Origin: an uncultured Gammaproteobacteria bacterium
GTDB taxonomy: Bacteria; Patescibacteriota; Microgenomatia; Levybacterales; UBA12049
Direction: 5' to 3'
Length of the DNA stretch: 64,000 bases
NCBI GenBank assembly: GCA_964483115.1
Contig: CAYZZF010000002.1
Coordinates: 5,493 to 69,492 of the forward strand
This document shows, piece after piece, positions 1,315 through 42,197 of the stretch. The translations under genes were made by a program, and so were the position numbers. The notes under the pieces were generated by a model. That model made no database searches and was not told where the DNA came from. It saw nothing but the letters and a program-made list of their open reading frames with translations. Within the stretch, counting starts at the first letter, position 1. Every line of letters begins with the position of its first letter.

Positions 1315-2416
1315 GAGAAAGAAATATAAAAAGATCTTTTTAATTGTAATCGTTCTTGTTGTTTTATTTTTTGCAGGAAAAGCAGCTTTAAATCTTACTA
1401 GAATAGCACCGTTTCTATTTCAGCTATTTTTTAATTATGATGTAAAACTTAAACAGAGCGATGACCATATAAATATTCTCCTTCTTGGGATAGGTGGAGG
1501 AACCCATCAAGGACCAAATTTAACAGATACTATAATCTTTGCAAGCCTTGATCCTGTTAAGAATAAAATTTCTTTAATTTCAATTCCCCGCGATCTATGG
1601 ATCCCAGATATTAATGGGAAAATAAACAGCGCTTATGCAATAGGTGAGGAGGAAAGAAATGGAGGAGGACTTGTGCTTGCCGAGGCAGTTGTTCAAAAAG
1701 TTCTTGGCCAGCCCGTTGATTATGGAGTACGAATAGATTTTAGCGGCTTTATAAAGGCAGTCGATGAAGTCGGAGGACTTGATATTAATGTTGACCGTGC
1801 TTTTGATGATTTTGAATATCCAATCGATGGTAAGGAAAATGATCCATGTGGTCGTACAGACGAAGAACTTAAGACTCTCGCAACTGCCTCATCTCAGCTT
1901 GAAGCATTCCCTTGTCGATATAAGTATATCCATTTTAATAAAGGGCTACAGCGTATGGACGGAAAAAGAGCTCTTGAGTTTGTAAGATCTCGTTATGCGC
2001 AAGGGCCGGAGGGGACTGATTTTGCAAGAAGTCAAAGACAGGAGAAAGTTATCAAAGCATTTAATGCTAAAGTACTTTCTCTTGAAACAATCTTTAATCC
2101 CGCAAGAATAATAAGCCTTTACAATATTGTCAAAACGAGTATAGACACTGATATAAAAGAGAATGAATTTGATGATTTTATAAGGCTTTATCAAAAATTA
2201 AAGACTGCAAAAATTACAAATGCGGTTTTAGATATGGGTGACGTAGAAACTAAAAGGCCTGGGCTTTTAGTAACCCCCAAACCTTTAGAAGAATATAATT
2301 ATCAATGGGTTTTGGCCCCTCGCATTGGAGATGGCAATTTTTCGGAGATTCAAAAATATGTTGATTGTGAGATAAAGACTGGGAATTGCAAAATTTCTAA
2401 AGAAGTGGGGAGGTAA
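1307..2416 (+). CDS. LytR-CpsA-Psr (LCP) family cell-envelope phosphotransferase
   Basis: N-terminal TM, then LLLGIGGGTHQGPNLTDTIIFASLDP...ISIPRDLWIP, the LCP core. The start overlaps the tpiA stop. Confidence 0.8.
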   Translation: MRKRKKYKKIFLIVIVLVVLFFAGKAALNLTRIAPFLFQLFFNYDVKLKQSDDHINILLLGIGGGTHQGPNLTDTIIFASLDPVKNKISLISIPRDLWIPDINGKINSAYAIGEEERNGGGLVLAEAVVQKVLGQPVDYGVRIDFSGFIKAVDEVGGLDINVDRAFDDFEYPIDGKENDPCGRTDEELKTLATASSQLEAFPCRYKYIHFNKGLQRMDGKRALEFVRSRYAQGPEGTDFARSQRQEKVIKAFNAKVLSLETIFNPARIISLYNIVKTSIDTDIKENEFDDFIRLYQKLKTAKITNAVLDMGDVETKRPGLLVTPKPLEEYNYQWVLAPRIGDGNFSEIQKYVDCEIKTGNCKISKEVGR

Positions 2417-4721: not shown

Positions 4722-5274
4722 TTTTTAAATGTTTTTCTGCAAATTCTCTAAGATCTATTATGGGCACTAAATTTTTTGGAAGACGGACTTTTTTTGGAAA
4801 TGTTCCTTTCAGCCAAAAAAAATCTATTCTGGGATTTCTTTTCGACAAATATAAAAGAAGATCAAGATCGTCATCAACAAATTTTGTTAATTTTAATTTT
4901 CTTATCATTTTATCTTTTAATAAATGAGGTTGCTCATTTTCGAAATTAAAATACATTTTTTTGAAAAACTTTTTTAATTTATGTCTTTTTAGCCAAATTT
5001 CTGTTTTATTTTTTAAAAAACCAAATCTTCCAGAAATAAGAAAAATATCCAATTCATTAATTTTTGTAATTTCAGAAAGCACTTCAATGTTTTTCTTAAT
5101 TGGGGATCTTAGCATCCAATGATGTGATAAAATTCTTATTTTTTGCTCAAATTCACTTGGAAATCTGTAGACTAATTTATGATTCTTTTTTTTGTATAGC
5201 CTGTCAATAATTGAGCTTGGGATAAAAGGAGGATAATCTACAAAAACCTTATCAAAATCAAATCCTATCCTCAT
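4708..5274 (-). CDS. HAD-superfamily hydrolase-like protein (possible phosphatase/nucleotidase)
   Basis: N-terminal GFDFDKVF resembles HAD motif I (DxD). Length 188 aa. Overlaps its neighbours within an operon. Confidence 0.45.
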   Translation of the reverse strand: MRIGFDFDKVFVDYPPFIPSSIIDRLYKKKNHKLVYRFPSEFEQKIRILSHHWMLRSPIKKNIEVLSEITKINELDIFLISGRFGFLKNKTEIWLKRHKLKKFFKKMYFNFENEQPHLLKDKMIRKLKLTKFVDDDLDLLLYLSKRNPRIDFFWLKGTFPKKVRLPKNLVPIIDLREFAEKHLKNGIF

Positions 5275-5277: not shown

Positions 5278-6333
5278 TTAATATGAATTAAATAATTTAC
5301 CCCAATTTGTCTTCATAAAATTATCGATTCTTTTTCTGCCAATAAAATTATACCAGTAGCCATCATGATATAGATTGGAAGCCAAATATGACCATGGAGC
5401 AATAAAGGTTTGAAGCAATACTTTCTCAATATTTTCAGGAAGCTTATGATAAATAAATTTCTGGCCGCGTGAAGCGAAAGTATCGCTTGTTTTAAACCTC
5501 CATGAAGAAGGTAATTTTACATTAACATCAGGGGATAATGTCCCCAATTTTAATTTGTCTGCAAGCCTTAAATATTTTAATTTTTCAGGTTTAAAGCCCA
5601 TTATTTTTGCAACAACCGCATCTATGGCCACTAAATCGGATGAAGCAAAAAGATAATTTTTTTCTTCCCAATCCATTGCACGAGGACCTGAACCTTTTCC
5701 CACAATAGCTCCATCTGTCACACCTAAAATAGCAGGATGAATTTCTTTCTGGATTGTCAAAAGATCAACAATTGCCTCATGAATATATCTATGTGCAAAG
5801 TGTCTCACTTCTCCAAGCATTCCAAAATAATTCTTTATACAGCCGGTAGTGGTAGTGAATACGTGCATTTTGGCAGTGGCTAAATGGATTATGTTTTTAT
5901 TGAAAATTATTTCAGGAAGCAAAATTCCTTTCGGGAAAATTTTATCTAAAATTAGCATTTTATGCCTCGGTTTATAATAGATATACTTTTCATCAGTCAA
6001 ATAATGCATTTTCACTCCGTATTTTTTAAAAACCTTATCCCATTTATTATTTATTGTTCCCTGATAAACATTAGTGACTACAGTTCTATTTTCCAAAGGA
6101 ATTATTTTTTTAGGATTGAAGCCATCTTCAATCAAAGATTTTATAACACCCTCTAATTCCCATGGGGGAGTTGAACATGCGGGATAAAATTTAGTCCAAG
6201 ATAAATTAATTTTTAGAACCGTTTCTTTTTCTGGATTGAAATATCTTTTATATTGTGTTAATTCAAGCAGTTTTTTATAATCCTTCAAAACTGTTTCGGG
6301 TTTTGTCCTAACAAAAAATACTTTCGCCTTCAT
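5278..6333 (-). CDS. DUF362-domain protein
   Basis: Overall resemblance to the DUF362 family (about 350 aa, GVTDGAIVGKGSGP block). Function unknown. Confidence 0.45.
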   Translation of the reverse strand: MKAKVFFVRTKPETVLKDYKKLLELTQYKRYFNPEKETVLKINLSWTKFYPACSTPPWELEGVIKSLIEDGFNPKKIIPLENRTVVTNVYQGTINNKWDKVFKKYGVKMHYLTDEKYIYYKPRHKMLILDKIFPKGILLPEIIFNKNIIHLATAKMHVFTTTTGCIKNYFGMLGEVRHFAHRYIHEAIVDLLTIQKEIHPAILGVTDGAIVGKGSGPRAMDWEEKNYLFASSDLVAIDAVVAKIMGFKPEKLKYLRLADKLKLGTLSPDVNVKLPSSWRFKTSDTFASRGQKFIYHKLPENIEKVLLQTFIAPWSYLASNLYHDGYWYNFIGRKRIDNFMKTNWGKLFNSY

Positions 6334-6356: not shown

Positions 6357-8057
6357 TTACTTATCATTTTTCTTGAAAATCATAACCTTAGGATGGTCAT
6401 ATACGGTGAAAGATTCATCTGCGTTCTGATCATTTATGTCTATATTTGTAAAAGGAATTTTCGGGTATATGGCAAATTCGGCTACTTTTTCAAATCTCAA
6501 TTTTCCTGAAAAAAGATTTTTATAATATTCTGCTGTCTCTCTATAGCAAGGATTAGGAAATAATTTTTGACAATCAGTTAATTTTTGAAGCGGTACATAA
6601 AGTCTGTTGGAAGCAATAATAATATAATCTGTTTGTCTTAATTCAGTGTTTATTATAGACCATTTTTGAGGAGTGTCTTGGTTGTAAAGCGCAAGAGTTA
6701 AGATATTATAATTTTGTGCTCCAAAAAGAGGCAAACTATCATCCCAATGCTCTATTGCTATTGTTTTCCCTTGTGGTATATTTTCATTTATCCAATAGGA
6801 TGCCTGAACTCTAGTGTTTGGTTTTGTATAGATATTAAGGAAAGATAAAGTCCAAGTAAAAATACTACCAATAAATACCAATACTACCAATAAATACCAA
6901 TTACCAATCCTAATCTTTAGAAAAGTGGAAAGCTTATATATAAAAACTCCGGCAAAAACGGAAAGTAAAGGGTATAGAGGTAGCATATATCTCATAAAAC
7001 CTATTGCAAAACTTCCTGTTACTAAGAAATAAGTAAAGAAAAAGGCGATGATAATTATCAACTTATAATTGATTTTTTTAATTAATGAGACAGTAACATA
7101 GATTGTTCCTGAAAAAGCCAAAATTGCCAAAAAAGGTCCCTCTCCCCAAAGAAAAATATTTTTTAATTCATAAAAATAAGGAATTTTACCTACATATTGA
7201 AGCGTATAAGGAAACACAAAGGCATTGTGCGTCATTTGATATTGCTCAAGAGTCTGTTTCTGAAACTGCGGAAAATCTAGAATTGCATAGGGCTCAAGTA
7301 TTACAAAAGTTATAATAGTTCCAAAAATTATAATTAAACCTTCTGAGAAAAGACGTTTAAGAAAAATGGGTAGATGGGAAAACCAAATATGAGGCTTATG
7401 AGGTTGACGGAGGAAAATAAACAGAAAATCAATAGCAAGAGCAAGTCCAATAGAAATAATAAGAGGCAATGCGCTTACTTTAGTTGCTAAAGATAATCCA
7501 AAAAAAAGACCAATTAACAAAGCTTTCTTTTTGCTCGGCTTTTCATAAAAAAAAGATAGCATATATAAAGTTGCAAGAATAAAAAGAGAAAGCAAAGTAT
7601 CAACTGCATAAAAATGAGATGTTTGAAGGGGAAAAACACTTATTGCATAAAAAAAGGAAGAAAATAAGGCAACTTTTTGATTGAATAATTTTCTAGCAAG
7701 AGAAAAAATAACTAAAATAACTACTAAATCAGCAAAAACAGAAATAATCCGTCCAATAATATTAATTCCCGCATAGGTTGCAAAAGATGGATTTAAGAGA
7801 CCTGCAATACTTCCAAAAATTTTAAGAAGGTAAATAGGGAAACTTCCGTAAGCAAAAAAACGAGGATTCAGTGGGCTTTGAGGAGAAAAGAATTCGCTAG
7901 CATTTGAAGGGAAATGGAGCGGAAGAGCATACATTACTATTGCTCTTTCATCAGGATGAAGATGAAATCCTTGGTCCCAATTTAATCCATATATTCTTAA
8001 AAAGCTTGCGAGAATTAAAATCCCTAATAAAAGTAAATTTATACGTAAATTCTTCAT
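6357..8057 (-). CDS. GT-C fold membrane glycosyltransferase (PMT/ArnT-like, GT39/GT83)
   Basis: Polytopic protein. The first loop carries HLHPDER (the acidic DE motif), followed by FFAYGSFPIYLL. It is a paralog of the next gene. Confidence 0.7.
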   Translation of the reverse strand: MKNLRINLLLLGILILASFLRIYGLNWDQGFHLHPDERAIVMYALPLHFPSNASEFFSPQSPLNPRFFAYGSFPIYLLKIFGSIAGLLNPSFATYAGINIIGRIISVFADLVVILVIFSLARKLFNQKVALFSSFFYAISVFPLQTSHFYAVDTLLSLFILATLYMLSFFYEKPSKKKALLIGLFFGLSLATKVSALPLIISIGLALAIDFLFIFLRQPHKPHIWFSHLPIFLKRLFSEGLIIIFGTIITFVILEPYAILDFPQFQKQTLEQYQMTHNAFVFPYTLQYVGKIPYFYELKNIFLWGEGPFLAILAFSGTIYVTVSLIKKINYKLIIIIAFFFTYFLVTGSFAIGFMRYMLPLYPLLSVFAGVFIYKLSTFLKIRIGNWYLLVVLVFIGSIFTWTLSFLNIYTKPNTRVQASYWINENIPQGKTIAIEHWDDSLPLFGAQNYNILTLALYNQDTPQKWSIINTELRQTDYIIIASNRLYVPLQKLTDCQKLFPNPCYRETAEYYKNLFSGKLRFEKVAEFAIYPKIPFTNIDINDQNADESFTVYDHPKVMIFKKNDK

Positions 8058-9679
8058 AATTTTTTTTCAAAGATAAATAGTGTTGGTCTATCAAAAACAC
8101 TAGCGGTTTCTTCAAAACTAAATACCGGGTTTCCAAGATAAGTTATTTTGCAAAAAATGTCACAAGGGGTTTCATAAATTTCTATAAATCCCAATTTTTG
8201 ATTAAAAATATTATTGTAAAATTTATACCCTTTAGGAAATTGTTTTGGATTACTAAGTCTTGTATCTATAATTCTTTGGCTTGGGAAAACTGCAACTTCG
8301 TTTGTTTTTAATAGAAAAGAGAGTTCTAAGTCTTTATTTTCCATAGTATCAAGATCATAAAAATTAAAAAGAGTGATTATTGGGAAATTTCGATTAAAAG
8401 GAAGAATTCCTAGATCATAAACTTCGCTTAAAATTTTTGCATCATTTTTAACATGCTTTCTTGCCCAAGATGCAGCATCTACACGGGTATCAATTTTAGC
8501 ATAAACAGTTATAAAATAAGAAATTGCAAACACAAAATTTATTATTGTGATAAAAATTAGAAGATAATTTATAAGATTTTTTTTCAGAAAAGCGCGAAAA
8601 TCTGAGATGGCAAAGCCAATAATTAAAAATATAAAAGGCAGAGTTGGTAACACATAACGAGTCCATTTAGCAAAGAAGAAAGCTTGAGATAAAAATATTA
8701 AAAGGAAAGCTATGAGAAGTAAGAAAATATAATAGTTTTTATTTTTTATAAATATATAAATTAAATAAATAAGACAGACAACAAAAATAATTGTTGTAGA
8801 AGGATTTAGAAGAAAAGGATATATTTTGAGAAATTGATAAGCAATTGGAACAGTACCAAAAAACTCTTGCGTATAAAAAACAGGGAGTGTCCCAAGAGCA
8901 ACAGATGATTCATAGTTCATGCTAAAGAGAAAAGATTTGAAATCAAAAACAGAAAATGGGGAAAATATAAAAAAGGTTATAGCAGAAATAGTAAGAACTG
9001 AAAATAATTTCAAAAAGATCTTTTTATATTTTTTCTTTTCAATTCTTGCATTTAGAAAAATTGAGATTAATGGTATAGGAAAGAAAACAAGATTCGAAAT
9101 CTTTGTCGCTGCAAGAAAACCTAAAATCACACCTGATAGGATAATGTTTTTAAGTGTCATTTTTCTATAAATTTTTACGCTTATGAAAAATAATAAAGAC
9201 GCAAAAAAAGCACTTACCGTTTCGAATGTGCCGAAATGTGCAAATTGAATAAAACCTACACTTAAAATTGAAAATATCGAAGTAGTAATAGCTGCGGTTT
9301 TATCTTTTATTTCTTTAGCAATGAAATATAAAACGGGAATAAGAAGGGTGCTTAACAATGCAGACATAAAGCGGGAAATTAAAATGGCATTCTCAAAAGA
9401 AACTTGGGACATGGAATCAGAAATTTTAGTTTGGAAAATCACATTTTTTACAATTCCGGCAAAGAATATTAAATAAATAGGGAAACTTCCGTAAGCAAAA
9501 AAATGAGGATTCATTTGAGTTGGAAAATTAAGCTGGGAAACAGCGGCGGCAATGTTCCTTTCATCGGGATTAAAATAAAAAGGAGCGCCCCAGTCAAGAT
9601 TATAAAATCTTAAAAAAGCTCCGAAAGCCATTAAAATAAACAAGAATAACAACTCTTTGTTATTTAATATTTTTTTCAT
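8054..9679 (-). CDS. GT-C fold membrane glycosyltransferase (PMT/ArnT-like), tandem paralog
   Basis: FYNLDWGAPFYFNPDERNIA...HFFAYGSFPIYLIFF has the same architecture as 6357-8057. Confidence 0.7.
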   Translation of the reverse strand: MKKILNNKELLFLFILMAFGAFLRFYNLDWGAPFYFNPDERNIAAAVSQLNFPTQMNPHFFAYGSFPIYLIFFAGIVKNVIFQTKISDSMSQVSFENAILISRFMSALLSTLLIPVLYFIAKEIKDKTAAITTSIFSILSVGFIQFAHFGTFETVSAFFASLLFFISVKIYRKMTLKNIILSGVILGFLAATKISNLVFFPIPLISIFLNARIEKKKYKKIFLKLFSVLTISAITFFIFSPFSVFDFKSFLFSMNYESSVALGTLPVFYTQEFFGTVPIAYQFLKIYPFLLNPSTTIIFVVCLIYLIYIFIKNKNYYIFLLLIAFLLIFLSQAFFFAKWTRYVLPTLPFIFLIIGFAISDFRAFLKKNLINYLLIFITIINFVFAISYFITVYAKIDTRVDAASWARKHVKNDAKILSEVYDLGILPFNRNFPIITLFNFYDLDTMENKDLELSFLLKTNEVAVFPSQRIIDTRLSNPKQFPKGYKFYNNIFNQKLGFIEIYETPCDIFCKITYLGNPVFSFEETASVFDRPTLFIFEKKL

Positions 9680-9683: not shown

Positions 9684-10958
9684 TTAAATTACAATTTTCG
9701 CCACTTTTTGTCCAAGCTCCACCGCATAATTAGTACCCCTATCCCACGGATAAATTTGGTCTATATTGGCAAGATAAACGTTTTTGATAGGCGTTTTGAA
9801 AGGAGGTATTATTTTTCCATACCCAACCTCCATAACAGGCTGGGCAAAAGGAGCTTTAAAAACCTCATAGCTTATAACATATTGCTTATAGTTTGGATTT
9901 ATTTTCTTAAGAAACGGATCATAAATTTTTAGAAGTTCATCTGCTGCCATTTGCATATAAGGATGATCGAAAGGAAGATAATTGCCTATGTACACTATGT
10001 GTTCATTATTATAATATTTTTTGTCCATAAAATTTGTATGTTCAACCACAGCCATTAAAGGATTTTTTCTTTCGCAAATATTTAACCAGTATGTTCCATC
10101 AATAAGGAATTGTTTTTTAAGCCTCAAAATAAGATTGATCGCTCCTAAACTTTTAAGGCTTGCAAGTTTACTCTTGTAATCTAAAGGGAGTTCGGGGACA
10201 ATTTTTAAAAATAGAAAAGACGGCAAAGTAACAATTAACGAATCAAATTCATTTTTTTCAATTTTTGAATTTTGAGCTCCAATTTTAATTTTTGACTTTT
10301 GAAATTTGATTTTTGAAACCTCAGTATTATAGTAAAATTTTCCGCCTTTTTCTTGAATTTTTTCTTCAAGAGCTTCAGAGAATTCTAAAAACCCTCCTTG
10401 TGGATAAACAAGGCTTGGAGTTCTTTTTTTAATTCTTGCCCAAAACCATGCAAGAGAAATATCTTTTGCGAGATCACCAAATTTTCCTTTAAGAAGCGGA
10501 CTCCAAACCATTTCATAACCCTTTTTGCCCATAATTTTTAAAAGAATTTCGTTTGCTTTATATTTATCAAAGATTTTTAAAAAAGGGCTGAACTTTAAAA
10601 AACCAAGAGCCAATCCCATTCTAATTTTCTCAATAAAATTAAGGAGAGGGAAATTAATTAGAGTAAATGGAGAATCAAGTTGGTAAACTCCGCCCTTTAT
10701 AAAAGTTGAGGTTTTAGGTCTTTTGACAATAACTGGATAATTTATTTCTCTTGCTAAATCTAAAACTGTTTTATCATTTGTAAACCAATGATGGTAATGT
10801 TCTTCCACTGTCCATTTCCACCCCTTTTTTTTATAACCAATTGCAAGGCCTCCTGGTTTTGCCCCTTTTTCAAAAACTGCTACTTCATGACCATTTTTTA
10901 CCAATTCAAAAGCAGCGGACAGTCCGGTAAAGCCCGCACCAATAATTGCTATCTTCAT
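9684..10958 (-). CDS. Rossmann-type FAD/NAD(P)-binding oxidoreductase (amine-oxidase / UDP-galactopyranose-mutase-like fold)
   Basis: MKIAIIGAGFTGLSAAFEL...VFEKGAKPGGLA is a GxGxxG dinucleotide fold. Contains an in-frame repeat insertion at 10255-10318. Confidence 0.7.
   Translation of the reverse strand: MKIAIIGAGFTGLSAAFELVKNGHEVAVFEKGAKPGGLAIGYKKKGWKWTVEEHYHHWFTNDKTVLDLAREINYPVIVKRPKTSTFIKGGVYQLDSPFTLINFPLLNFIEKIRMGLALGFLKFSPFLKIFDKYKANEILLKIMGKKGYEMVWSPLLKGKFGDLAKDISLAWFWARIKKRTPSLVYPQGGFLEFSEALEEKIQEKGGKFYYNTEVSKIKFQKSKIKIGAQNSKIEKNEFDSLIVTLPSFLFLKIVPELPLDYKSKLASLKSLGAINLILRLKKQFLIDGTYWLNICERKNPLMAVVEHTNFMDKKYYNNEHIVYIGNYLPFDHPYMQMAADELLKIYDPFLKKINPNYKQYVISYEVFKAPFAQPVMEVGYGKIIPPFKTPIKNVYLANIDQIYPWDRGTNYAVELGQKVAKIVI
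10255..10318. repeat. intragenic in-frame copy of dispersed repeat
   Basis: aattttgacttttgaaatttga is a 22-bp exact match to the reverse complement of the groEL-downstream copy (20931-20965). Confidence 0.6.
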
Positions 10959-12567: not shown

Positions 12568-12570
12568 TTT

Positions 12571-13750: not shown

Positions 13751-13784
13751 CGCACTTTTAGTCTAGGGATTTTTTTAGTTTTTG

Positions 13785-14075: not shown

Positions 14076-14111
14076 AGGTGGATTTTAGCATGTTATACTT
14101 TAAATTACAAT

Positions 14112-19262: not shown

Positions 19263-20930
<1,668 letters not shown>

Positions 20931-21880: not shown

Positions 21881-22825
21881 TTAGGGAGCAATAAAGTATA
21901 CTATTGCAATGACTAAAATAACCCAAACAACGACGGTTGTAAGAAGCGGTCTATCCGAAAGTAAGACTTTTTCAGGACTTTCTCCTTCATGTTTTTCATA
22001 AACATCTTGGATATATCTCATTAGTCCATAAACCACAGGTACTATTGTAATCATTAGCCATTTTCTATATAAAAATGATGGAAGAAAATCCGGAAGAAAT
22101 ATACTAATTCCCAGTCTGAATCCTTTGGGATTTTCCAAAAACGTAAAAAGTGAATAGAATACAAAAGTTGATGTAGCAAATATTGAAGTATAAACATCAA
22201 GCAATCTTTCAGAATAATGAGATAGAGATCTTCGAACATCTGCAATACTAGCCCCTTTTATTTGAGAAACAAGGGTGAGTTCGGATTTTCTTTTGCCAGT
22301 AGCCAAAAACAGAGAAAGAGAAATGATAGTCAGCAAAAGCCAGACTGATATATGGAAACCACTTGCAAATTCACCAGCATACACTCTTAATATATAACCT
22401 GTAGATATAGCCAGAATATCTGCGACGGCAACCGACTTTAGGGAAAGAGAGTATAGAAATTGAATTAATAAAAATATCAAGATTACTATGAAAAACGCCG
22501 GCGTTACATAAATAAAGGACAGATAGAGAGATACAGCCATTAAAATAAGAGCTAAACTTATTGCAGGTATTGTTTTGACATCGCCGTGGGCTAACGGGCG
22601 AAATCTTTTGAACGGGTGAAGTCTATCGCTTCTTATATCAAAATAATCGTTAATAATATACGTTGCAGAAGATACTCCGCATAAAATAAAAAAACCGATT
22701 AGAACCTTTTCAAATACCGGTAAATAAAATAATTGTCCAGAAAAAGTTATAGCAGCAAAGATTGCTAAATTTTTTATCCATTGTCTAGGTCGTAAAAGTC
22801 TTAAAATATTATATATTGTTTTCAT
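21881..22825 (-). CDS. UbiA-family prenyltransferase, decaprenyl-phosphate phosphoribosyltransferase (DPPR synthase)-like
   Basis: N-terminal LLRPRQWIKNLAIF and NDYFDIRSDRLHP, the UbiA Asp-rich motif. Confidence 0.65.
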   Translation of the reverse strand: MKTIYNILRLLRPRQWIKNLAIFAAITFSGQLFYLPVFEKVLIGFFILCGVSSATYIINDYFDIRSDRLHPFKRFRPLAHGDVKTIPAISLALILMAVSLYLSFIYVTPAFFIVILIFLLIQFLYSLSLKSVAVADILAISTGYILRVYAGEFASGFHISVWLLLTIISLSLFLATGKRKSELTLVSQIKGASIADVRRSLSHYSERLLDVYTSIFATSTFVFYSLFTFLENPKGFRLGISIFLPDFLPSFLYRKWLMITIVPVVYGLMRYIQDVYEKHEGESPEKVLLSDRPLLTTVVVWVILVIAIVYFIAP

Positions 22826-23885
22826 TTTCAGTTTTTCTTAAAAATAAGTGTAGGAAGAGTAAGGCACCCCCTATCAAAATTATTATCATAATAACTGCAA
22901 AAAATTTTCCCTTGCTTGATAAGAACAAAGAAAGGGAGCCTAATATAGCAGAAATAAGCCAATAAAACAATGCAATTGTTCTTTGCGAAAAACCCATGTA
23001 CAAAAGTATGTGGTGGAGATGTTTTTTGTCATGCCAAAACGGAGACTTTCCTTCCAGAACTCTACGGATAATTGTAAATACTCCATCAATCATTGGTACT
23101 CCCATAACTAAAATTGCAGTAGCCAGCTTTGCGCTTGAGAGAATCGAGATAGTAGCCAACAAAAGATAAATTGCAGTCGCTCCATATCCTGGGAAAATCT
23201 TAGCAGGGTAAAAATTAAAAATTAAAAATCCCAACGCAGCTCCTGCGAGCATAAAAGAAAGTTTCGCGCTGATAAGATTTGTCTCATCAATTATGGGAAA
23301 ACGAAGGCTAAGAAGTCCTATTACAACAGCGGAAATTGCTACAATTCCTGGCATTTGTCCATCAACACCTTTACTCCAATTTAGCATATTCATAACCCAT
23401 ACAATCCATACAAGGGCAATAAGATCTGACAATACTAATATTGAATGATGTCCAAAAAAATCAAATGAGATACGGAAAATGTTTAGATAAAGAATTCCGC
23501 CAAATGGATTGGTTACAAAAGGTATTCCTACACCACTTCCGACAACAATGCCAGCTGATACTATATTTATAAAAAAACGCGCATAAGGAGATATGTCAAA
23601 TTTGTCATCCAAAACCCCAATTATAAGAGCAAGAAGAGAGGCTAAAAAAAGAGCGATTACAATTTTTGTCATAGGTAAAAATAAAATTCCCGAAGTTAAT
23701 ACTCCTATGAAAAGAGGAATTCCTCCTCCTCTTGGAACTGGTTTTTTGTGTATTACGGCAGGATGTTTATGAGAGAATGGGTCATCAACTACGCCTATCT
23801 TCTTAGCAATAACTAACCAAATGGGCGTTACAATCGCTGTGCTGACAAATGCCGTTACAAAAGGTAGGAATATTATATTTTGCAT
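22809..23885 (-). CDS. GT4 polyprenyl-phosphate sugar-1-phosphate transferase (MraY/WecA family)
   Basis: About 10 TM, with VLDDKFDISPYARF and the MNxxNxxDGxDG-like block MNMLNWSKGVDGQ. Confidence 0.75.
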   Translation of the reverse strand: MQNIIFLPFVTAFVSTAIVTPIWLVIAKKIGVVDDPFSHKHPAVIHKKPVPRGGGIPLFIGVLTSGILFLPMTKIVIALFLASLLALIIGVLDDKFDISPYARFFINIVSAGIVVGSGVGIPFVTNPFGGILYLNIFRISFDFFGHHSILVLSDLIALVWIVWVMNMLNWSKGVDGQMPGIVAISAVVIGLLSLRFPIIDETNLISAKLSFMLAGAALGFLIFNFYPAKIFPGYGATAIYLLLATISILSSAKLATAILVMGVPMIDGVFTIIRRVLEGKSPFWHDKKHLHHILLYMGFSQRTIALFYWLISAILGSLSLFLSSKGKFFAVIMIIILIGGALLFLHLFLRKTENENNI

Positions 23886-23894
23886 GAGCCAATA

Positions 23895-24248
23895 TTAAAT
23901 TATCAAAGATATCGTCCTTAGGATAAAAAGAAAAGATAGAAAAGCAATAAGAAGGCTTGTTGTTGCAAGTATACGAGATAAAACCTGCATCTTTTTATAG
24001 ATAATTGATGAAATGACCATATTAATAATAGAGATAAAAAATGCTAAAGCTATAGGGATAAATATCATAATTGTTGTTCCAAGCCTGATGTTGCCCCAGG
24101 GAAGTTGGTTAAAAAGAGGAATAAAGGGAGGAAGAGAACTATAATAAAAAAGTATATAGACAACTGTAATAATAACTAAAATAAAAGATGTGGAAAATCC
24201 AGCCAAAATTACTTTGTCCTCTTTTGCATCCTTAAAAAATTCGTTCAT
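23895..24248 (-). CDS. small polytopic membrane protein, unknown function
   Basis: Three predicted TM helices; packed between glycosyltransferase genes. Confidence 0.4.
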   Translation of the reverse strand: MNEFFKDAKEDKVILAGFSTSFILVIITVVYILFYYSSLPPFIPLFNQLPWGNIRLGTTIMIFIPIALAFFISIINMVISSIIYKKMQVLSRILATTSLLIAFLSFLFILRTISLII

Positions 24249-25722
24249 AAATTACAGTATTGTCAATTCTTACGCCCCGGCCATAATTATAAAGAGAGAA
24301 AGGAATATTGCCTTGGTCAGGAAGCACCACAATAAATTTCACTTTTTTATCTAAGACAGCTTTTTGTGTATTTTTTATTCCATCTTTATAACCTGTTATG
24401 TGGTAAGCTACTGCATATTTCCCGGGAGGGAGCTTATTGGATAGCGTGTATATTTGAGCATTGTTTCCCCAGACAAATATTGTATCTTTATTAGTTGTTC
24501 TCATTTTGATAAATTGTGCAATTTCATAATCTACAGCCGTTTGTCTATCAAAAAACGCCTGATAGGAGGAAACGGTTTTTTTACCCATGATAAATGATAA
24601 AAAATTCTGATAGTAGAAGATTGTTTTACCATAAAAGTTAAAATCTTTAACAATAAATAAAAGAAAAATTATAAAAATTGAAGCATTTATCAATTGATAT
24701 TTCTTGTCCCAAAAAAGTAAACCTAAAAGCAATATAAAACTTGGCAGAAGTACTAAAAGATAATGTGTATAGGGCCGTTGGGCAAAGTAGGCATTAAAAA
24801 GAGAGAATGAAAACCAAAGGAGTATAAAAAGAGTAGTTTTTGAAAATTTATTTCTTTTTGTAAATAAGAAAATAGTAAACAGAATTAGCAAGAATAACTT
24901 AAAGAATAGAAATCCCTGAGGAATAAAAAATTTATTTCCATATCCTACATATGACACATTTTGGAGAAATGTTGCCTGAAGGAACTCTTTAAATGCCCCG
25001 GCAGTTAGGAAAAATAATATTGATATTAATATCGGAATCAAAAACCCTATTACAAAAATCAATAGTGGTTGCAGAAGATTATCAAAATTTTTCCTAATCA
25101 ATGAGCTTTTAAGGGAAACCTTGACTGGCAGGTTTATAAATAAAATAAATAGGAAGAAAGCTGCAAAATCAAAAACTGCAACAACCTTAAAAAGAAAAGC
25201 TACTCCAAGAAGAAGACCAGAAAAAAAAAGAATTCCCTGCTTTTTTGCTGGAATTATGTCAAAGATAAAAAAAGCGGCAAAAAGTATTGGGAAGAGTATG
25301 AAATTTTCTGCATTTGCAATGTTCCCTTCAAGAAGCGGTAGTCCAAAAAGGACTGCAAAAAGTAAAGTAGTAATAAATACTATATTTTGTCCACTTTGTT
25401 TGTTTTGAAAAAGTTTTTTTACAAGAACAAAAAAAACAATTATTGCCAAAATTCCAAAAATAATAGAAACAAACCGCAGAGCAAATTGGTCAGAATTAAA
25501 AAGAGCATACAGTAAATAAAGCAGAGGCGGCTTGTTGTCCCAAATATCTCTATAAAGAAGTCTTCCATTACGGAGTGCAATACCTAGTACTTGATAGATT
25601 CCTTCATCGCCATACCAATACGGTTCAAAAAGAGAGGGAAGACGAAGGAGAAAAAAAACAAAAGACGCTAGTAGAAGAAACCAAACATCTTTACTCTTTT
25701 CAGCTTTGGCAATAAGCCTCAT
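24232..25722 (-). CDS. GT-C fold membrane glycosyltransferase (ArnT/PMT-like), third copy
   Basis: LFEPYWYGDEGIYQ (DE motif in the first loop); polytopic; 496 aa. Confidence 0.6.
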   Translation of the reverse strand: MRLIAKAEKSKDVWFLLLASFVFFLLRLPSLFEPYWYGDEGIYQVLGIALRNGRLLYRDIWDNKPPLLYLLYALFNSDQFALRFVSIIFGILAIIVFFVLVKKLFQNKQSGQNIVFITTLLFAVLFGLPLLEGNIANAENFILFPILFAAFFIFDIIPAKKQGILFFSGLLLGVAFLFKVVAVFDFAAFFLFILFINLPVKVSLKSSLIRKNFDNLLQPLLIFVIGFLIPILISILFFLTAGAFKEFLQATFLQNVSYVGYGNKFFIPQGFLFFKLFLLILFTIFLFTKRNKFSKTTLFILLWFSFSLFNAYFAQRPYTHYLLVLLPSFILLLGLLFWDKKYQLINASIFIIFLLFIVKDFNFYGKTIFYYQNFLSFIMGKKTVSSYQAFFDRQTAVDYEIAQFIKMRTTNKDTIFVWGNNAQIYTLSNKLPPGKYAVAYHITGYKDGIKNTQKAVLDKKVKFIVVLPDQGNIPFSLYNYGRGVRIDNTVIYERIF

Positions 25723-27221
25723 ATCTTTTCTGTAACTTTGTATTCAAGTCTTTTTCCAAGCATAAGTTGAGTATGAGAAATAAGAGCAGGAAGTGTTGAT
25801 AGAAAAAATCCAACAATTGGCAGAAGCACGAATTCAAGAGGAAATAAAAATTCCCTTGCCTTACCCAGAAACATGTTGCGAGGCCTATTTCTAAAATCAA
25901 TAATAACCATTACTAAAAGTGCAAAAAGACAAGAAGTTAAAATAGCAGCAGCAATGCCTGGAAGTCTGTATCCAAGAGCTGTTCTTGAGAAAGCAGGATT
26001 TATAAAAGGTATGATATTTGCTGCAATAGTTATTATAAACCAGTTTACAGGCCAAAGGAAATGATCTAAGAGTACATTATATAGCATAACAGTTTTTCTA
26101 ATAAAAGGCACGTTGGGTATTGTAAGCCACCACTTTATAAATAAGGGGTCATCAGATACGCCCCATGACCAGCGTCTTTCCTGATCATATTTGTTTTTGA
26201 GACTTTTTAGGAATGTTGAAGAAAGAGGAGCATCCATTGATGTTTTTAGAAAAATTGGTTCAACCCAAGCATTTCCAGCGAGTCTAAAAAAGGCTTTAAA
26301 AAAAATTCTGTAATCCTCAGGGATTACATCTGTATCCCAAAAGTCGATTCTCTTTAAAAGTCTAAAAGAGAGAGAATAAGTTGAATTCGCAACAAGTTTA
26401 TCTTTTTGTACAAGAACAGCCATTCGCCAAACGCTTCCGAAAAATGCGATAATTCTTGTTGGTGCTGGTATTTTCCAGAAATTATTATAATTAACGTTTG
26501 CTGACTGCCAAAATTTATTGTATGGTTTAGAATCAGTTAGAAATTTATAAGATAGATAGGAAAAATATTGTTTATCAAAAATTGAATCTGCATCAACAGA
26601 AGACACAGTTGCGTAATCTATATCTATAATTCCTTTTTGAATCAGTTCTTTATATGCCATTTTTCCTGCGTATGCCTCATTTGATGATTTACCTTTTACT
26701 TCTCCTGAAATGTCAGGATGATAAGTAGCAAGCATTTGTCCAAAAACCTTTTCAAAATCTTTGATTAGGATATCTGCTTTCTCCTTTGCATCTTTTTCTC
26801 TTTGTTCCATGGCCAATACTATATAGATTCTTTTTGTGGGGAAGGTTTGGCCTGCTATTGATTTGATAGTTTCTCTTAATTTTTCTACCTTTTCTTTATA
26901 ATTTGGAAGAATAACAACATGAGAAAGTTTTTTAAACCCTTCAACTGCAGAGGACTCTTGAAACCAATCCTTTTTTTCGGCTTTTTTTATTTTATTAGAT
27001 GCAATAATTGCGGTGGCCGCAAGAAAGAATGATTTGTAAAACCAATAAACATCAAAAAATAGTATAAAATATGCAACAAAAAAAGGAATAACCAAAGAAC
27101 CCCAAATAGGAAATAAAATAAGCATCCAGGAAAAAAAGCCCGGCAGTATTTCCAAAAACCGCCTCGTTTTTACCGGATAGCGGATAAAAATTCTATTAAA
27201 AAAATCACTCATAAAGATCAA
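25719..27221 (-). CDS. membrane GT2 glycosyltransferase, processive (cellulose/chitin-synthase-like) type
   Basis: VVILPNYKE, SSVDADS (DxD), and QERRWSWG (Q-x-x-R-W motif), with flanking TM segments. Confidence 0.7.
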   Translation of the reverse strand: MIFMSDFFNRIFIRYPVKTRRFLEILPGFFSWMLILFPIWGSLVIPFFVAYFILFFDVYWFYKSFFLAATAIIASNKIKKAEKKDWFQESSAVEGFKKLSHVVILPNYKEKVEKLRETIKSIAGQTFPTKRIYIVLAMEQREKDAKEKADILIKDFEKVFGQMLATYHPDISGEVKGKSSNEAYAGKMAYKELIQKGIIDIDYATVSSVDADSIFDKQYFSYLSYKFLTDSKPYNKFWQSANVNYNNFWKIPAPTRIIAFFGSVWRMAVLVQKDKLVANSTYSLSFRLLKRIDFWDTDVIPEDYRIFFKAFFRLAGNAWVEPIFLKTSMDAPLSSTFLKSLKNKYDQERRWSWGVSDDPLFIKWWLTIPNVPFIRKTVMLYNVLLDHFLWPVNWFIITIAANIIPFINPAFSRTALGYRLPGIAAAILTSCLFALLVMVIIDFRNRPRNMFLGKAREFLFPLEFVLLPIVGFFLSTLPALISHTQLMLGKRLEYKVTEKI

Positions 27222-28027
27222 TCTCTTTTCAAATCGAGTCTAAAAATATTATTAACGTTTTCTGTTGTTTTTTCAATGGCCTTTTTAAATGAGACACCTT
27301 TAATTTTAGAGAGAAAGTTCCCAACAATTATAACATAACTTGGTATATTTCTACTACCCCGATGGGGCACTGGAGCTAGAAATGGACTATCAGTCTCGGC
27401 AACAATTCTATCGATTGGAGCGTATTTGACAAGCTCAGAAAGCGCAGTATCTTCACCTGGAGATAAACCTTTATAAGTAATATTTCCGTCAAATCCTACA
27501 TAAAATCCAAGTTCAAGTATCTTTTTAAGAAAATCAGTATTTCCGGACATACAGTGAAACATTCCCGGAGGATTTAATAAGAGTGATTTATGAGCATTTA
27601 AAATTTCAATAATTTTTTTTCCAGCTTGGCGATTATGGATCTGAAGCGGAAGTTTTAATTTATTTGAAAGTTCAATTTGTTTGACAAAAACTCTTTCCTG
27701 AAGTTCTGGTTCAACAATAGCATTAGATTTATAGCTATAAAAATCCATTCCGCATTCTCCAATTCCTACAACTTTTCGGTTTTTTGCCATTTTTTCAAGC
27801 TCTTTGTCCCAATCCTTTTCTAATTTATCGGCATGATGAGGATGGATTCCGATAATTGCATACAAGTTTCCATATTTTTCCGCTAGATCAATTGCTTTTT
27901 GGCTTGAATCAATCTTGGTTCCAACATTTATAATCTTCGTAACCCCGTCCTCAAAAGCTTTCTTAATGACCTCATCAAAATCTTTCTCAAAAGCTTTAAA
28001 ATTCAAATGACAATGTACATCAACCAT
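27218..28027 (-). CDS. tatD: TatD-family metal-dependent DNase/hydrolase
   Basis: MVDVHCHLNF...IGIHPHHA, and a C-terminal ETDSPFLAP. Confidence 0.9.
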   Translation of the reverse strand: MVDVHCHLNFKAFEKDFDEVIKKAFEDGVTKIINVGTKIDSSQKAIDLAEKYGNLYAIIGIHPHHADKLEKDWDKELEKMAKNRKVVGIGECGMDFYSYKSNAIVEPELQERVFVKQIELSNKLKLPLQIHNRQAGKKIIEILNAHKSLLLNPPGMFHCMSGNTDFLKKILELGFYVGFDGNITYKGLSPGEDTALSELVKYAPIDRIVAETDSPFLAPVPHRGSRNIPSYVIIVGNFLSKIKGVSFKKAIEKTTENVNNIFRLDLKRD

Positions 28028-41883: not shown

Positions 41884-42197
41884 TGATGGCTTGGGATTTT
41901 TTAAAATTTTGGTTCTTCGAAGCTCCAAGAGAAATATTAAATTTCTTTACCTCCCTTAACAAATCTTTTCTGGAATTAGTTTCTCTTCAACTTTTGGTAA
42001 AAACATATTTTAAAGCCTGGAAAAATGAGTACAGGGAGGGACTGGTTGGATTCTCGATTGCAATGGGAATATTTATAAAAACCCTTGTTATTTTTGCCGA
42101 TATAATTTTGTTTTCCATTCTTTTGTCAATTGAAATAATATTATTTTCTGCGTTTATTTTTTGGCCGATTGGAACAGTCATTTTGCTTTTTATTTAA
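41884..42197 (+). CDS. small membrane protein, unknown
   Basis: Two TM helices. The ATG at 41884 is preferred because it avoids the overlap with the upstream gene. Confidence 0.35.

Follow-up and report, generated by a model that had tools for sequence, protein, structure and literature searches.

The block at positions 21881-27221 of the 64,000-nucleotide stretch of DNA analysed here (the window) encodes what is probably the core of a system that glycosylates the Levybacteria (CPR/Patescibacteria) cell envelope with polyprenyl-phosphate-linked pentofuranose; judging from sequence, we put the probability of this reading at roughly 0.6. The block consists of five minus-strand ORFs for a UbiA-like protein, a WecA-like GT4, a 117-aa membrane protein (sm117), a GT-C and a membrane GT2 (Table 1). 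The initial annotation gave exact borders for four of these (UbiA 21881-22825, GT4 22809-23885, GT-C 24232-25722 and GT2 25719-27221) but missed sm117. The GT2 ORF exists as it was described, but its start is most likely ATG 27212, as in all homologues, rather than TTG 27221. Junctions between the ORFs are overlaps of 4-17 nt or gaps of at most 9 nt. The UbiA, GT4, GT-C and GT2 genes each have hundreds to thousands of homologues at E<1e-100, and the complete five-gene order is retained in 61 of the 70 testable species-representative Levybacteria/Microgenomates genomes; the block genes are therefore real and not chance ORFs. PEGA/SH3 and cohesin/PKD surface proteins are encoded on its flanks.

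Table 1. Annotated features of the two glycosylation loci in the window.
Feature	Position	Strand	Basis or context
LCP (LytR-CpsA-Psr) glycopolymer-to-peptidoglycan ligase	1307..2416	+	PF03816 E=7e-32; divergent from DUF2298
DUF2298/Chlor_Arch_YYY large polytopic membrane protein; candidate GT-C-type transferase	2397..4721	-	overlaps HAD-like gene
HAD-superfamily phosphatase, lineage-restricted; candidate polyprenyl-P-ribose-5-P 5-phosphatase	4708..5274	-	motifs and fold
DUF362 protein in variable slot upstream of HAD gene	5278..6333	-	PF04015
PMT_2-type GT-C glycosyltransferase (paralogue 1)	6357..8057	-	PF13231/PF02366
PMT_2-type GT-C glycosyltransferase (paralogue 2)	8054..9679	-	PF13231/PF02366
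FAD-dependent oxidoreductase (PRK07233 family), conserved ahead of the GT-C pair	9684..10958	-	NF005560 393 bits; PF01593
UbiA-superfamily polyprenyl-phosphate 5-phosphoribosyltransferase (PPPRS; Rv3806c/DPPR-synthase type), 314 aa	21881..22825	-	PF01040, NF008978, 8j8j
WecA/TagO-like polyprenyl-phosphate sugar-1-phosphate transferase (PNPT family, 'Glycos_transf_4'), 358 aa	22809..23885	-	PF00953
sm117, conserved three-TM membrane protein, 117 aa; candidate accessory subunit or flippase	23895..24248	-	between GT4 and GT-C
GT-C fold glycosyltransferase (PMT_2-type), 496 aa, ~9 TM and C-terminal soluble domain	24232..25722	-	PF13231
Membrane-integrated GT2, cellulose/hyaluronan-synthase-like, 497 aa	25719..27212	-	motifs and fold; ORF extendable to TTG 27221
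TatD/YabD-family metal-dependent hydrolase, first gene of co-oriented run	27218..28027	-	PF01026, TIGR00010

The UbiA-like protein had been assigned to the mycobacterial Rv3806c type, and this assignment held; a quinone or haem prenyltransferase it is not. The NCBIfam equivalog NF008978 scored 209.6 bits against a cut-off of 207, a marginal excess of 2.6 bits; scores for two sister DPPRS models were under their cut-offs. The DPPRS models overall gave 178-210 bits, whereas UbiA, MenA, CyoE, ChlG and GGGP-type models reached at most 62 bits. The best PDB match was Rv3806c itself (8j8j; E=7e-41, full length, 35.7% identity), as against E=2e-4 for the next UbiA-fold enzyme. The Mg, PRPP and 5-phosphate ligands of Rv3806c have been defined by cryo-EM and mutagenesis, and its phosphoribose-binding residues are not conserved in UbiA enzymes that use prenyl diphosphates (PMC10994848). 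In the alignment to 8j8j all 13 of these ligands are identical in the Levybacteria protein (R22, K28, Y70, N73, D74, D77, D81, K87, R90, Q135, Y138, K143 and Y157), and an arginine takes the place of lysine at the K208 position. The PRPP/Mg ligand positions are invariant or near-invariant across 66 orthologues, and the RPRQWIKN motif, also present in the window protein, is invariant or nearly so. By sequence this is an Rv3806c-type PPPRS, which would almost certainly charge a lipid carrier with ribose-5-phosphate from PRPP. No PRPP synthetase was seen in the window. That the protein is instead a conventional prenyltransferase of quinone, haem or archaeal-lipid synthesis, in a block unrelated to pentoses, as the JGI label '4-hydroxybenzoate polyprenyltransferase' on some close relatives and the solely generic Pfam match (PF01040) might suggest, is extremely improbable and is refuted at the sequence level by the NCBIfam scores, the PDB ranking and the full set of phosphoribose-binding residues.

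The neighbouring GT4 matched PF00953 with 82 bits and resembled the WecA model (E=1e-27) more than the MraY model (E=1.5e-7), both under their equivalog cut-offs. The motifs DDxxD, NxxNxxxGxDG and HxHH are all present, and D93-D94, N166/N169/G173/D175/G176 and H289/H291/H292 are invariant in 70 orthologues; its annotation as a WecA-like polyprenyl-phosphate sugar-1-phosphate transferase is confirmed. The GT-C with a DE motif is likewise real: PF13231 (PMT_2) scored 38 bits (cut-off 26.1), and the loop-1 residues W36-Y-G-D39-E40, D62-N-K-P-P66, R316 and H320, among others, do not vary in 71 orthologues. The GT-C has no PDB relative by sequence or profile and no detectable similarity to any of the window's three further GT-C-like proteins (BLASTP E>=0.7 or nothing). 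Its sequence is also unrelated to GT136, Emb and Aft enzymes, so that only its context suggests a donor. Between GT4 and GT-C lies sm117, with three hydrophobic segments and no Pfam or NCBIfam match even at E<=10. It is conserved in at least 59 related loci and keeps this position in 62 complete blocks, nearly always at a length of 117 aa and with 29-61% identity, and residues D11, P40, P44, W51, G52, N76 and R92 are invariant.

The window copy of the GT2 reached none of the Pfam GT2 thresholds, but PF13632 matched 55 of 86 diverse family members. Across the family (24-57% identity), E107, D207xD209, E299-D300 and Q344xxR347 are invariant or near-invariant, the window protein having DAD at D207/D209 and QERRW at Q344/R347. 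Position 348 is W in 69 of the 86 members and H in 16; K175xxN178 occurs in 82, an aromatic residue at 491 in all and K496 in 85. Foldseek searches with a structural model (pLDDT 64 overall, with a high GT-A core) returned CvHAS 7sp7, XlHAS 8smm and BcsA 5ej1/4p00 as the best full-length matches, and the non-processive archaeal mannosyltransferase 6yv7 was also among the top matches. By its motifs (DxD, ED, QxxRW and [F/Y]xVTxK) and its modelled fold the GT2 is cellulose/hyaluronan-synthase-like, which bears out its annotation as a membrane synthase-like enzyme. It shares with BcsA, hyaluronan synthases and chitin synthase/NodC the GT-A core E(x)…DxD…ED…QxxRW, the KxxN UDP-binding stretch, the C-terminal [F/Y]xVTxK and TM helices at both termini. 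It differs from this group in having no PilZ or other regulatory domain and in that its gating-loop-like motif sits at the extreme C-terminus.

The GT2 may or may not act in one pathway with the other four genes. The TatD gene (PF01026 E=1e-75; TIGR00010 254 bits) abuts the GT2 gene in the same orientation, with a 568-nt gap upstream of TatD, and the two are adjacent in 74 of 78 loci, including loci without GT-C, GT4 and UbiA. The five genes may thus not constitute one pathway: TatD-GT2 could be an independent unit, its synthase secreting a beta-glycan of its own, and its adjacency to GT-C-sm117-GT4-UbiA could be due only to a rarely rearranged chromosomal region. We regard this as unlikely, though a serious contender. 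It would account for TatD-GT2 adjacency being more frequent (74/78) than the full block (61/70), for the his operon that separates GT2 from GT-C in locus L049, and for the distant loci, of which five of the nine with sufficient downstream sequence have MetRS-TatD-GT2 followed by unrelated genes (RNase Y in L076, a class II aminoacyl-tRNA synthetase in L083); L075 and L079, on shorter contigs, look the same. The entire region is syntenic in Levybacteria, flanking housekeeping genes included, and gene order by itself is therefore weak evidence for shared function. Against independence, GT2 and GT-C overlap by 4 nt in the window and are separated by a median HSP gap of ~26 nt across 62 loci, which suggests co-translation, and the complete block is still present down to ~50% GT2 identity (L072, L078 and L081). 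For the main reading speaks that GT-C-sm117-GT4-UbiA, contiguous in 61 of 70 genomes, has survived rearrangement of the flanking MetRS/GroEL genes and the his-operon insertion. The GT2 is tied more closely to TatD than to UbiA and could work on its own; a pathway role for TatD is doubtful.

A phosphatase for the predicted product of the PPPRS is potentially encoded in the first locus, 16.6 kb from the UbiA gene. The HAD phosphatase reported there proved genuine: it has no Pfam match and no PDB match by sequence, but D6xD8, S81, K120 and D134-D136 (motifs I-IV) are invariant in 40 homologues, and its AF2 model (pLDDT 91.5) has a HAD fold. Foldseek matches of this model were all HAD phosphatases, including 5'-nucleotidases and 7shg, a ribofuranosyltransferase containing a PRP domain. 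In L049 the UbiA gene is followed after 47 nt by SDR epimerase-HAD-DUF2298, so that the epimerase gene alone stands in the 1.1 kb between UbiA and HAD. The two loci are also joined in L145, with HAD near UbiA. This adjacency is limited to one sublineage; judging from contigs of equal length, the HAD family and the UbiA block also appear to share long contigs, for example of 650,109 nt and 330,010 nt. DUF2298 (PF10060 E=9e-97; TIGR03662 492 bits) comes after the HAD-like gene in every informative locus with downstream sequence, and beyond it most such relatives carry the LCP gene on the opposite strand (TIGR00350 and TagU-like matches). The slot upstream of HAD, occupied in the window by DUF362, holds a same-strand GalE-like SDR epimerase (PF01370, E=4e-43) in 26 of 41 informative loci (25 among L084-L165, plus L049); in the remainder it holds a methyltransferase and a GT-B, or other genes. 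The two paralogous GT-Cs, 28% identical to each other, are conserved in most informative first-locus relatives. Among PDB entries the FAD oxidoreductase came closest to uncharacterised archaeal oxidoreductases and carotene desaturase, and not to UDP-galactopyranose mutase.

These parts suggest the following pathway. The UbiA-like enzyme would, by strong inference, transfer ribose-5-phosphate from PRPP to polyprenyl phosphate at the cytoplasmic face, giving polyprenyl-P-beta-D-ribofuranose-5-P, and the HAD phosphatase would remove the 5-phosphate. Because neither locus has an SDR or DprE-type epimerase, the donor would remain ribofuranose, and is thus likely polyprenyl-P-ribofuranose rather than DPA; relatives with the GalE-like SDR beside the HAD gene probably make an epimer. 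The donor would be flipped across the membrane. The block has no recognised flippase (MATE, SMR or GtrA), which leaves sm117 as the sole unassigned candidate. On the outer side of the membrane the block GT-C would pass the pentofuranose to an acceptor, a role that the first locus's three GT-C-like proteins probably share. As acceptor, a glycopolymer is most likely: the WecA-like GT4 would prime it on polyprenyl-PP, and the neighbouring LCP ligase would attach it to peptidoglycan. The GT2 may build the decorated beta-glycan, or may be a separate synthase that only happens to lie in the same transcription unit.

A PPPRS, phosphatase, flippase and GT-C, with or without an SDR epimerase, have precedent in the 'three-component' system for the pentofuranose side chains of Citrobacter youngae O1/O2, which comprises ORF15 (PPPRS-PRP), ORF14 (MATE flippase), ORF12 (GT-C/GT136) and ORF13 (SDR epimerase); there, the presence of one SDR gene decides between Ribf and Xylf (Kelly et al. 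2024, PMC11127046). With this report, and with relatives of the UbiA-like protein already named 'decaprenyl-phosphate phosphoribosyltransferase' in public records, the earlier remark that such a route would be unexpected outside Actinobacteria is outdated. The Levybacteria loci share with Citrobacter the UbiA-fold PRPP-dependent synthase, a HAD-type phosphatase, GT-C transferase(s), a single optional SDR epimerase that is present or absent between close relatives, and, as proposed here, a WecA-primed polymer as acceptor. They differ in that the HAD is a separate, lineage-restricted protein of 188 aa that is not fused to the synthase, the block has no MATE flippase, and the GT-Cs, of PMT_2/DUF2298 type, do not detectably resemble GT136. 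The synthase gene also shares an operon with the WecA-like enzyme, sm117 and the cellulose-synthase-like GT2, and the CPR host has neither outer membrane nor O antigen.

The same donor could instead serve surface proteins and not a wall polysaccharide; type IV pilins, S-layer proteins and Ig/PKD-domain proteins would be candidates. In the window, and in most relatives whose upstream sequence is long enough, pilN/pilO and an Ig/fn3 surface protein stand immediately before the first locus. The GT-Cs of that locus belong to the PMT_2 type, which is protein-O-mannosyltransferase-like, and surface proteins flank the UbiA block as well. A precedent, cited in PMC11127046, is the D-arabinofuranosylation of Pseudomonas aeruginosa Pa5196/PA7 pilin by a PPPRS, DprE1/E2 homologues and the GT-C TfpW, likewise a case of a PPPRS outside Actinobacteria feeding a GT-C. 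Unlike that system, the window has no DprE homologues, and the WecA-like enzyme in the block and the LCP ligase by DUF2298, hallmarks of peptidoglycan-linked glycopolymers, point to a wall polymer; adjacency to the pil genes may be just conserved gene order. Protein acceptors therefore seem to us unlikely.

The initial annotation had suggested a DPA-like route, with lipid-linked ribose epimerised to arabinofuranose for arabinosyltransferase-type GT-Cs as in mycobacterial arabinogalactan. This did not stand up and we consider it improbable. The mycobacterial pathway comprises Rv3806c, Rv3807c, DprE1/DprE2, Rv3789, Aft/Emb GT-Cs, WecA, GlfT2 and Lcp1, and the Levybacteria neighbourhood mirrors this list with an Rv3806c homologue whose PRPP site is identical, multiple GT-Cs, a WecA-like initiator, a GT2 and an LCP ligase. 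In M. tuberculosis aftB-ubiA-Rv3807c-glfT2 are neighbours as well. The conserved FAD oxidoreductase and the SDR of relatives could in principle mimic DprE1/DprE2. However, a search for such enzymes found no DprE1 (FAD_binding_4), DprE2/SDR or PAP2 (Rv3807c) protein among window ORFs of at least 120 aa, and the FAD enzyme has an amine-oxidase/desaturase fold, not that of DprE1. The epimerase that most relatives carry is a single GalE-like SDR, the type yielding xylofuranose in Citrobacter O2; the GT-Cs match PMT_2 and DUF2298 rather than Emb/Aft arabinosyltransferase families, and the GT2 is a membrane-integrated synthase type, not GlfT2-like. The predicted sugar is accordingly not arabinofuranose but ribofuranose, or in relatives an epimer made by the SDR.

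A GT2, a small membrane protein and a GT-C form the classic three-component arrangement for hexose decoration (GtrA/B/V, GacI/J/L). The block has this layout, and with 6yv7 among the top fold matches the GT2 might be a GtrB/CsbB/DPM1-like polyprenyl-phosphate hexose synthase that supplies the GT-C with a lipid-linked hexose, the hexose option named by the initial annotation. We think there is little chance of this, as QxxRW, ED, the C-terminal [F/Y]xVTxK and a multi-helix C-terminal membrane domain are of cellulose/hyaluronan type rather than GtrB type, and the top full-length structural matches are HAS and BcsA. The pentofuranose system proposed here does share the logic of the Gram-positive systems (CsbB/GtrB-GtcA-YfhO; GacI/J/K/L), in which a lipid-phosphate sugar synthesised inside the cell is flipped and then serves a GT-C outside for the decoration of wall polymers, and in which a small membrane protein is encoded alongside. 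It departs from them in that its donor synthase would be a UbiA-fold PRPP enzyme instead of a GtrB-type GT2, its GT2 is synthase-like, and sm117 matches neither the GtrA nor the GacJ family. It would be a further case, and one from a new phylum, of the cell-surface pentose decoration known from mycobacteria, Pseudomonas and enterobacteria.

The UbiA-like protein of the second glycosylation block passed the NCBIfam equivalog model NF008978 marginally (209.6 bits against a cut-off of 207) and fell under the cut-offs of the sister models NF008977 (200 versus 234) and NF008976 (177 versus 474). In the PDB it matched Mycobacterium tuberculosis Rv3806c end to end over residues 5-311 (8j8j, E=7e-41), and the next UbiA-fold enzyme reached only 2e-4. 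None of the models for UbiA, MenA-type enzymes, haem O synthase (CyoE), chlorophyll synthase (ChlG) and GGGP synthase gave more than 62 bits. The grouping with MenA/UbiA prenyltransferases that the initial annotation had named as a refuting result is therefore contradicted by both the profile scores and the structural matches. Public pipelines already label close relatives of this protein 'decaprenyl-phosphate phosphoribosyltransferase'.

Cryo-EM and mutagenesis of Rv3806c have assigned Mg2+ binding to N73 and D77, ribose binding to N73 and Q135, 5-phosphate binding to K28, Y70 and Y157, and pyrophosphate binding to R22, K87, R90, Y138 and K143; this phosphoribose site is absent as a conserved feature from ordinary UbiA enzymes (PMC10994848). 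The window protein, with an overall identity of 35.7%, shares every one of these PRPP-site ligands, as well as D74 and D81, with Rv3806c; it has arginine in place of K208. Eleven of 14 PRPP-site positions are invariant among 66 orthologues, the exceptions being Q122 (histidine in eight), Y144 (phenylalanine in four) and the variable equivalent of K208. The equivalog score, the full-length match to 8j8j and the identical PRPP site uphold the proposed Rv3806c type. We are highly confident from these comparisons that the protein is a polyprenyl-phosphate 5-phosphoribosyltransferase (PPPRS) and not a prenyltransferase.

The initial annotation placed four enzymes in the block, and all four ORFs were found. 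It missed a fifth, a 117-residue membrane protein (sm117) for which no family match was obtained even at E<=10. Neighbouring ORFs of the block share 4-17 nt or lie at most 9 nt apart, and a TatD-family gene abuts the GT2 gene. The GT2 probably starts at the ATG at 27212, because all homologues are 495-498 residues long and begin at the equivalent position. A 568-nt gap separates the TatD gene from metG, and the downstream end of the block is convergent with a PEGA/SH3 surface protein gene and groES/groEL. Promoter and terminator scans performed at chance level (38 found versus 36 expected, and 7 versus 5.9), and a comparison with Rfam gave neither riboswitches nor any other RNA element, in the block or elsewhere in the window.

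Coordinates of the block, the first glycosylation locus and other features of the window
Feature	Coordinates	Strand	Remarks
DUF2298/Chlor_Arch_YYY polytopic membrane protein	2397-4721	-	first locus
HAD phosphatase	4708-5274		first locus
DUF362 protein	5278-6333	-	first locus, variable slot
FAD oxidoreductase	9684-10958	-	first locus
Ig/fn3-domain protein	10955-12286		
pilO and weak pilN homologue	12571-13750	-	
UbiA-like	21881-22825	-	314 aa
Glycos_transf_4 (GT4)	22809-23885	-	358 aa
sm117, unannotated membrane protein	23895-24248	-	117 aa
GT-C	24232-25722	-	496 aa
Membrane GT2	25719-27221	-	500 aa as ORF
TatD-family gene	27218-28027	-	abuts GT2
ORFs without Pfam family	35309-37627, 40247-41845, 47448-48434	+	772, 532 and 328 aa
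ClpB-like AAA+ genes	37688-40243, 42169-44580		
MltG to sortase region	58261-61396	-	
AMP/thymidine phosphorylase homologue	59217-60518		archaeal type
Protein with weak Baseplate_J-like stretch	61389-63617	-	742 aa

The near-identical and close relatives of the block proteins come from metagenome-assembled genomes of Candidatus Levybacteria (Microgenomates, CPR/Patescibacteria). We scanned species-representative genomes with the narrower of two GT2 alignments as the query, the diverse one being too divergent. This identified 80 loci in Levybacteria, Curtissbacteria, other Microgenomates and unnamed Patescibacteria, with GT2 identity ranging from 79% down to 48%. Many of these contigs (among L012-L079) have a clearly Levybacteria-like gene content but are titled 'uncultured Gammaproteobacteria' or 'Pseudomonadales', which is probably a placeholder or mistaken taxonomy. 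The order GT2-GT-C-sm117-GT4-UbiA, with spacing near zero, is present in 61 of the 70 loci having enough downstream sequence, and TatD lies directly upstream of GT2 in 74 of 78. The block is also unbroken in a group of loci (L055-L067) in which metG and groEL sit on the opposite side. Gene order alone is nevertheless little evidence on function, since the flanking housekeeping genes are almost equally syntenic.

Of nine distant loci with sufficient sequence downstream, five retain metG-TatD-GT2 followed by unrelated genes, for example RNase Y (L076) or a class II aminoacyl-tRNA synthetase (L083), and two shorter contigs (L075 and L079) show the same arrangement. In L049, a hisG/H/A/F cluster (12197-15205 of that locus) lies between GT2 and GT-C and cuts GT2 off from the other block genes. 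Because GT2 parts from the others in these cases, the tight unit is GT-C-sm117-GT4-UbiA; GT2 pairs with TatD and may be functionally separate from this unit. The his cluster of L049 is itself a PRPP-consuming biosynthetic pathway within a CPR genome. The distant locus L073 (11555-14303) retains GT4 and UbiA but has, in place of GT-C and sm117, two opposite-strand ORFs of 411 and 491 residues, neither with a Pfam match. Across L004-L083, no adjacency of the region is more stable than TatD-GT2, which is kept both where metG has been relocated and where GT-C, GT4 and UbiA are missing. TatD was considered as the missing 5-phosphatase, but this is not supported, as it adjoins GT2 rather than UbiA and is also found in loci lacking UbiA.

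The GT4 protein matched PF00953 with 82 bits against a cut-off of 27. It is much nearer to WecA (E=1e-27, 97 bits versus a cut-off of 326) than to MraY (E=1.5e-7, 31 versus 192) and stays under both equivalog cut-offs. Its DDxxD, NxxNxxxGxDG and HxHH motifs do not vary among 70 orthologues, and together with the PF00953 match they support the assignment to the WecA/MraY-like PNPT family. The block GT-C matched PF13231 (PMT_2) weakly but above threshold (38 bits versus 26.1). Its first extracytoplasmic loop carries a W-Y-G-D-E sequence in which D39-E40 is invariant across 71 orthologues, consistent with a GT-C enzyme with a DE motif as originally described. No PDB relative was found for it by single-sequence or profile searches, and its sequence is not detectably similar to those of the window's other GT-C-like proteins.

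The window copy of GT2 has no Pfam match; PF13632 is matched by 55 of 86 diverse members of its family, which comprises about 2,350 clusters at 50% identity in an exhaustive search. In these 86 members (24-57% identity), D207xD209 and Q344xxR347 are invariant, E107 of a PxYxE motif is present in 84 and W348 in 69. E299-D300 is kept (D300 in 84), as are K175xxN178 and a C-terminal [F/Y]xVTxK motif with the aromatic residue in 86 and the lysine in 85. We take these to be the cellulose-synthase motifs, gating loop included. Single-sequence and profile searches of GT2 against the PDB gave nothing meaningful. The AlphaFold model has a pLDDT of 64, high in the GT-A core and below 55 in the membrane part. 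Its best full-length Foldseek matches were the hyaluronan-synthase-type enzymes CvHAS (Chlorella virus HAS) and XlHAS (Xenopus HAS) and BcsA, with a TM-score of only about 0.4. The archaeal PcManGT, which is non-processive, has the same fold as these matches. The initial description as a membrane GT2 with DxD and QxxRW motifs holds, and the enzyme may reasonably be read as a putative processive beta-glycan synthase, with the reservation that a non-processive enzyme shares the fold.

A phosphatase that could act on the PPPRS product is encoded in the first locus. For the HAD ORF there, neither Pfam nor NCBIfam nor a PDB sequence search gave a match, and its family of 145 clusters consists, among source-named members, entirely of Levybacteria or Patescibacteria. 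HAD motifs I-IV (D6xD8, S81, K120 and D134-D136) are invariant in the family. The predicted structure is a Rossmannoid HAD fold with a pLDDT of 91.5, and its structural neighbours are all HAD phosphatases, among them 5'-(deoxy)ribonucleotidases and, at a lower rank, 7shg, a ribofuranosyltransferase containing a phosphoribose-phosphatase. Invariant motifs, a confident fold and the top structural matches all bear out the HAD phosphatase noted earlier in this locus. The HAD gene lies 16.6 kb from UbiA in the window and adjoins UbiA only in L049 and L145. In L049, SDR epimerase-HAD-DUF2298 comes 47 nt after UbiA, and in L145 the UbiA block and an SDR-HAD-DUF2298 module are neighbours. Judged from contigs of equal length, the HAD family and the UbiA block also appear to share long contigs in several genomes. 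PIN-domain toxin genes lie between the two in L145 (7401-8904), which suggests that the loci were united there by a rearrangement involving mobile toxin-antitoxin genes.

Most relatives keep the first-locus order pilN-pilO-x-Ig-FAD oxidoreductase-GT-C-GT-C-[slot]-HAD-DUF2298 with an LCP ligase opposite. The DUF2298 gene always overlaps the HAD gene and faces the LCP ligase in most relatives, which suggests a glycosyltransferase role for DUF2298. The slot is variable. It holds a same-strand GalE-like SDR epimerase (PF01370, E=4e-43) in 26 of 41 informative loci (25 among L084-L165, and L049), and a methyltransferase with a GT-B or other genes in the remaining relatives. In the window it is occupied by the DUF362 gene, directly upstream of HAD/DUF2298; no DUF362 protein was found in the slot of any relative examined. 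DUF362 may be a replacement of the SDR epimerase, with a related or unrelated role. A 345-residue ORF following UbiA in L049 was examined as a possible counterpart of DUF362 (BLASTP E=0.33) and is actually the SDR epimerase (19419-20456 of that locus).

The FAD oxidoreductase belongs to the PRK07233 family (393 bits), which is uncharacterised. In the window and most relatives, its gene directly precedes those of two paralogous PMT_2 GT-Cs. Its identification as a UDP-galactopyranose mutase, which would have offered a Galf or 'arabinogalactan' parallel, was rejected because the proteins closest to it are desaturases and uncharacterised oxidoreductases. The enzyme could take part in lipid-sugar modification as a non-orthologous redox partner. 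On its immediate upstream side, the first locus has pilO and the weak pilN homologue, followed by the Ig/fn3-domain protein; these genes recall Pseudomonas pilin pentosylation.

In Citrobacter youngae, experiments have established that a UbiA-fold synthase converts PRPP to polyprenyl-P-ribose-5-P, and a HAD domain takes off the 5-phosphate. The lipid is then exported by a flippase, and a GT-C attaches its ribofuranose, outside the membrane, to a polymer primed by WecA; one additional SDR gene turns the donor into xylofuranose (Kelly et al., 2024; PMC11127046). The mycobacterial decaprenyl-phosphoarabinose (DPA) route and Pseudomonas pilin arabinosylation were assigned to the same three-component class, with further candidates in Gram-positive bacteria and a phage (PMC11127046). 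Like the Citrobacter system, the block has UbiA and GT-C in one overlapping gene run (61 of 70 genomes). Unlike it, the block contains no recognisable flippase: MATE, SMR and GtrA were not found in it, and the sole MOP-superfamily gene in the vicinity encodes a genuine MurJ. Compared with the known examples, the HAD is separate and lineage-specific, the GT-Cs are of the PMT_2/DUF2298 type, and UbiA is operonically coupled to a WecA-like enzyme, the novel sm117 and a cellulose-synthase-like GT2. The locus is also near-universal in a CPR phylum, and we found no literature linking CPR/Patescibacteria to DPPR synthase, UbiA or GT-C systems of this kind.

On this basis we propose the following pathway, to which we assign as a whole a probability of about 0.6. 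We strongly infer that UbiA condenses PRPP with polyprenyl-P to give polyprenyl-P-Ribf-5-P, from which the stand-alone HAD would remove the 5-phosphate. The resulting donor would be used without epimerisation in the window's genome, since no epimerase gene was found among window ORFs of at least 120 aa; the SDR of the relatives, used as a tblastn query, had no match in the window. The donor would then be flipped, and sm117, as the sole unassigned conserved membrane protein, is the candidate. The block GT-C would transfer the sugar, as probably would the first-locus GT-C-like proteins. The acceptor is most likely a GT4-primed polymer, joined to peptidoglycan by the LCP enzyme, and GT2 may supply a beta-glycan backbone or be unrelated. 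Surface proteins or pilins as the acceptor are a live alternative.

A more far-reaching version, which we consider unlikely, is that the ultra-small Levybacteria possess a peptidoglycan-anchored, arabinogalactan-like glycopolymer that arose outside Actinobacteria and is jointly GT4-primed, GT2-built, GT-C-decorated and LCP-ligated. The backbone would be extruded by the cellulose-synthase-like GT2, and up to four GT-Cs of three unrelated families would extend it or densely decorate it with pentofuranose; the sugar would be ribofuranose in this genome and, in most relatives, an epimer made by the SDR. If this were true, it would provide a first function for DUF2298/Chlor_Arch_YYY, that of a pentofuranosyl GT-C, and would add a new clade of stand-alone phosphoribose-phosphatases as well as a new small membrane partner, sm117. 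A DPA-like arabinose route, as first suggested for this region, fails in the window, where neither DprE1 (FAD_binding_4) nor DprE2 (SDR) occurs among ORFs of at least 120 aa and no Emb/Aft-type arabinosyltransferase is present, the GT-C-like proteins matching PMT_2 or DUF2298 only. An Rv3807c-type PAP2 phosphatase was likewise not found among window ORFs of at least 120 aa.

Elsewhere in the window, the archaeal-type AMP/thymidine phosphorylase homologue (PRK04350, 474 bits) is encoded between the MltG and sortase genes, a region with typical CPR nucleotide-salvage and Gram-positive-like envelope content. The sole Pfam match of the 742-residue protein is the Baseplate_J-like stretch (E=5e-5). 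Three ORFs without a Pfam family lie amid chaperone and translation genes, and the 532-residue one has a ClpB-like AAA+ gene on either side.

The type of pathway is established and the enzyme family is auto-annotated in these genomes, so that nothing is overturned and the finding is no surprise in principle. To our knowledge, there is hardly any experimental information on the cell envelope of CPR/Patescibacteria, on which their episymbiotic life depends. Judged from sequence, the conserved locus described here very probably makes a lipid-linked ribofuranose donor. The three-component pentofuranose concept (2024) would thereby extend to a new phylum with another phosphatase, another GT-C and no known flippase. 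PPPRS and HAD are clonable targets that could be assayed in E. coli membranes as for Citrobacter. The locus thus offers a useful lead into CPR envelope chemistry and DUF2298 function, and it predicts pentofuranose-containing surface glycans across a whole candidate phylum.
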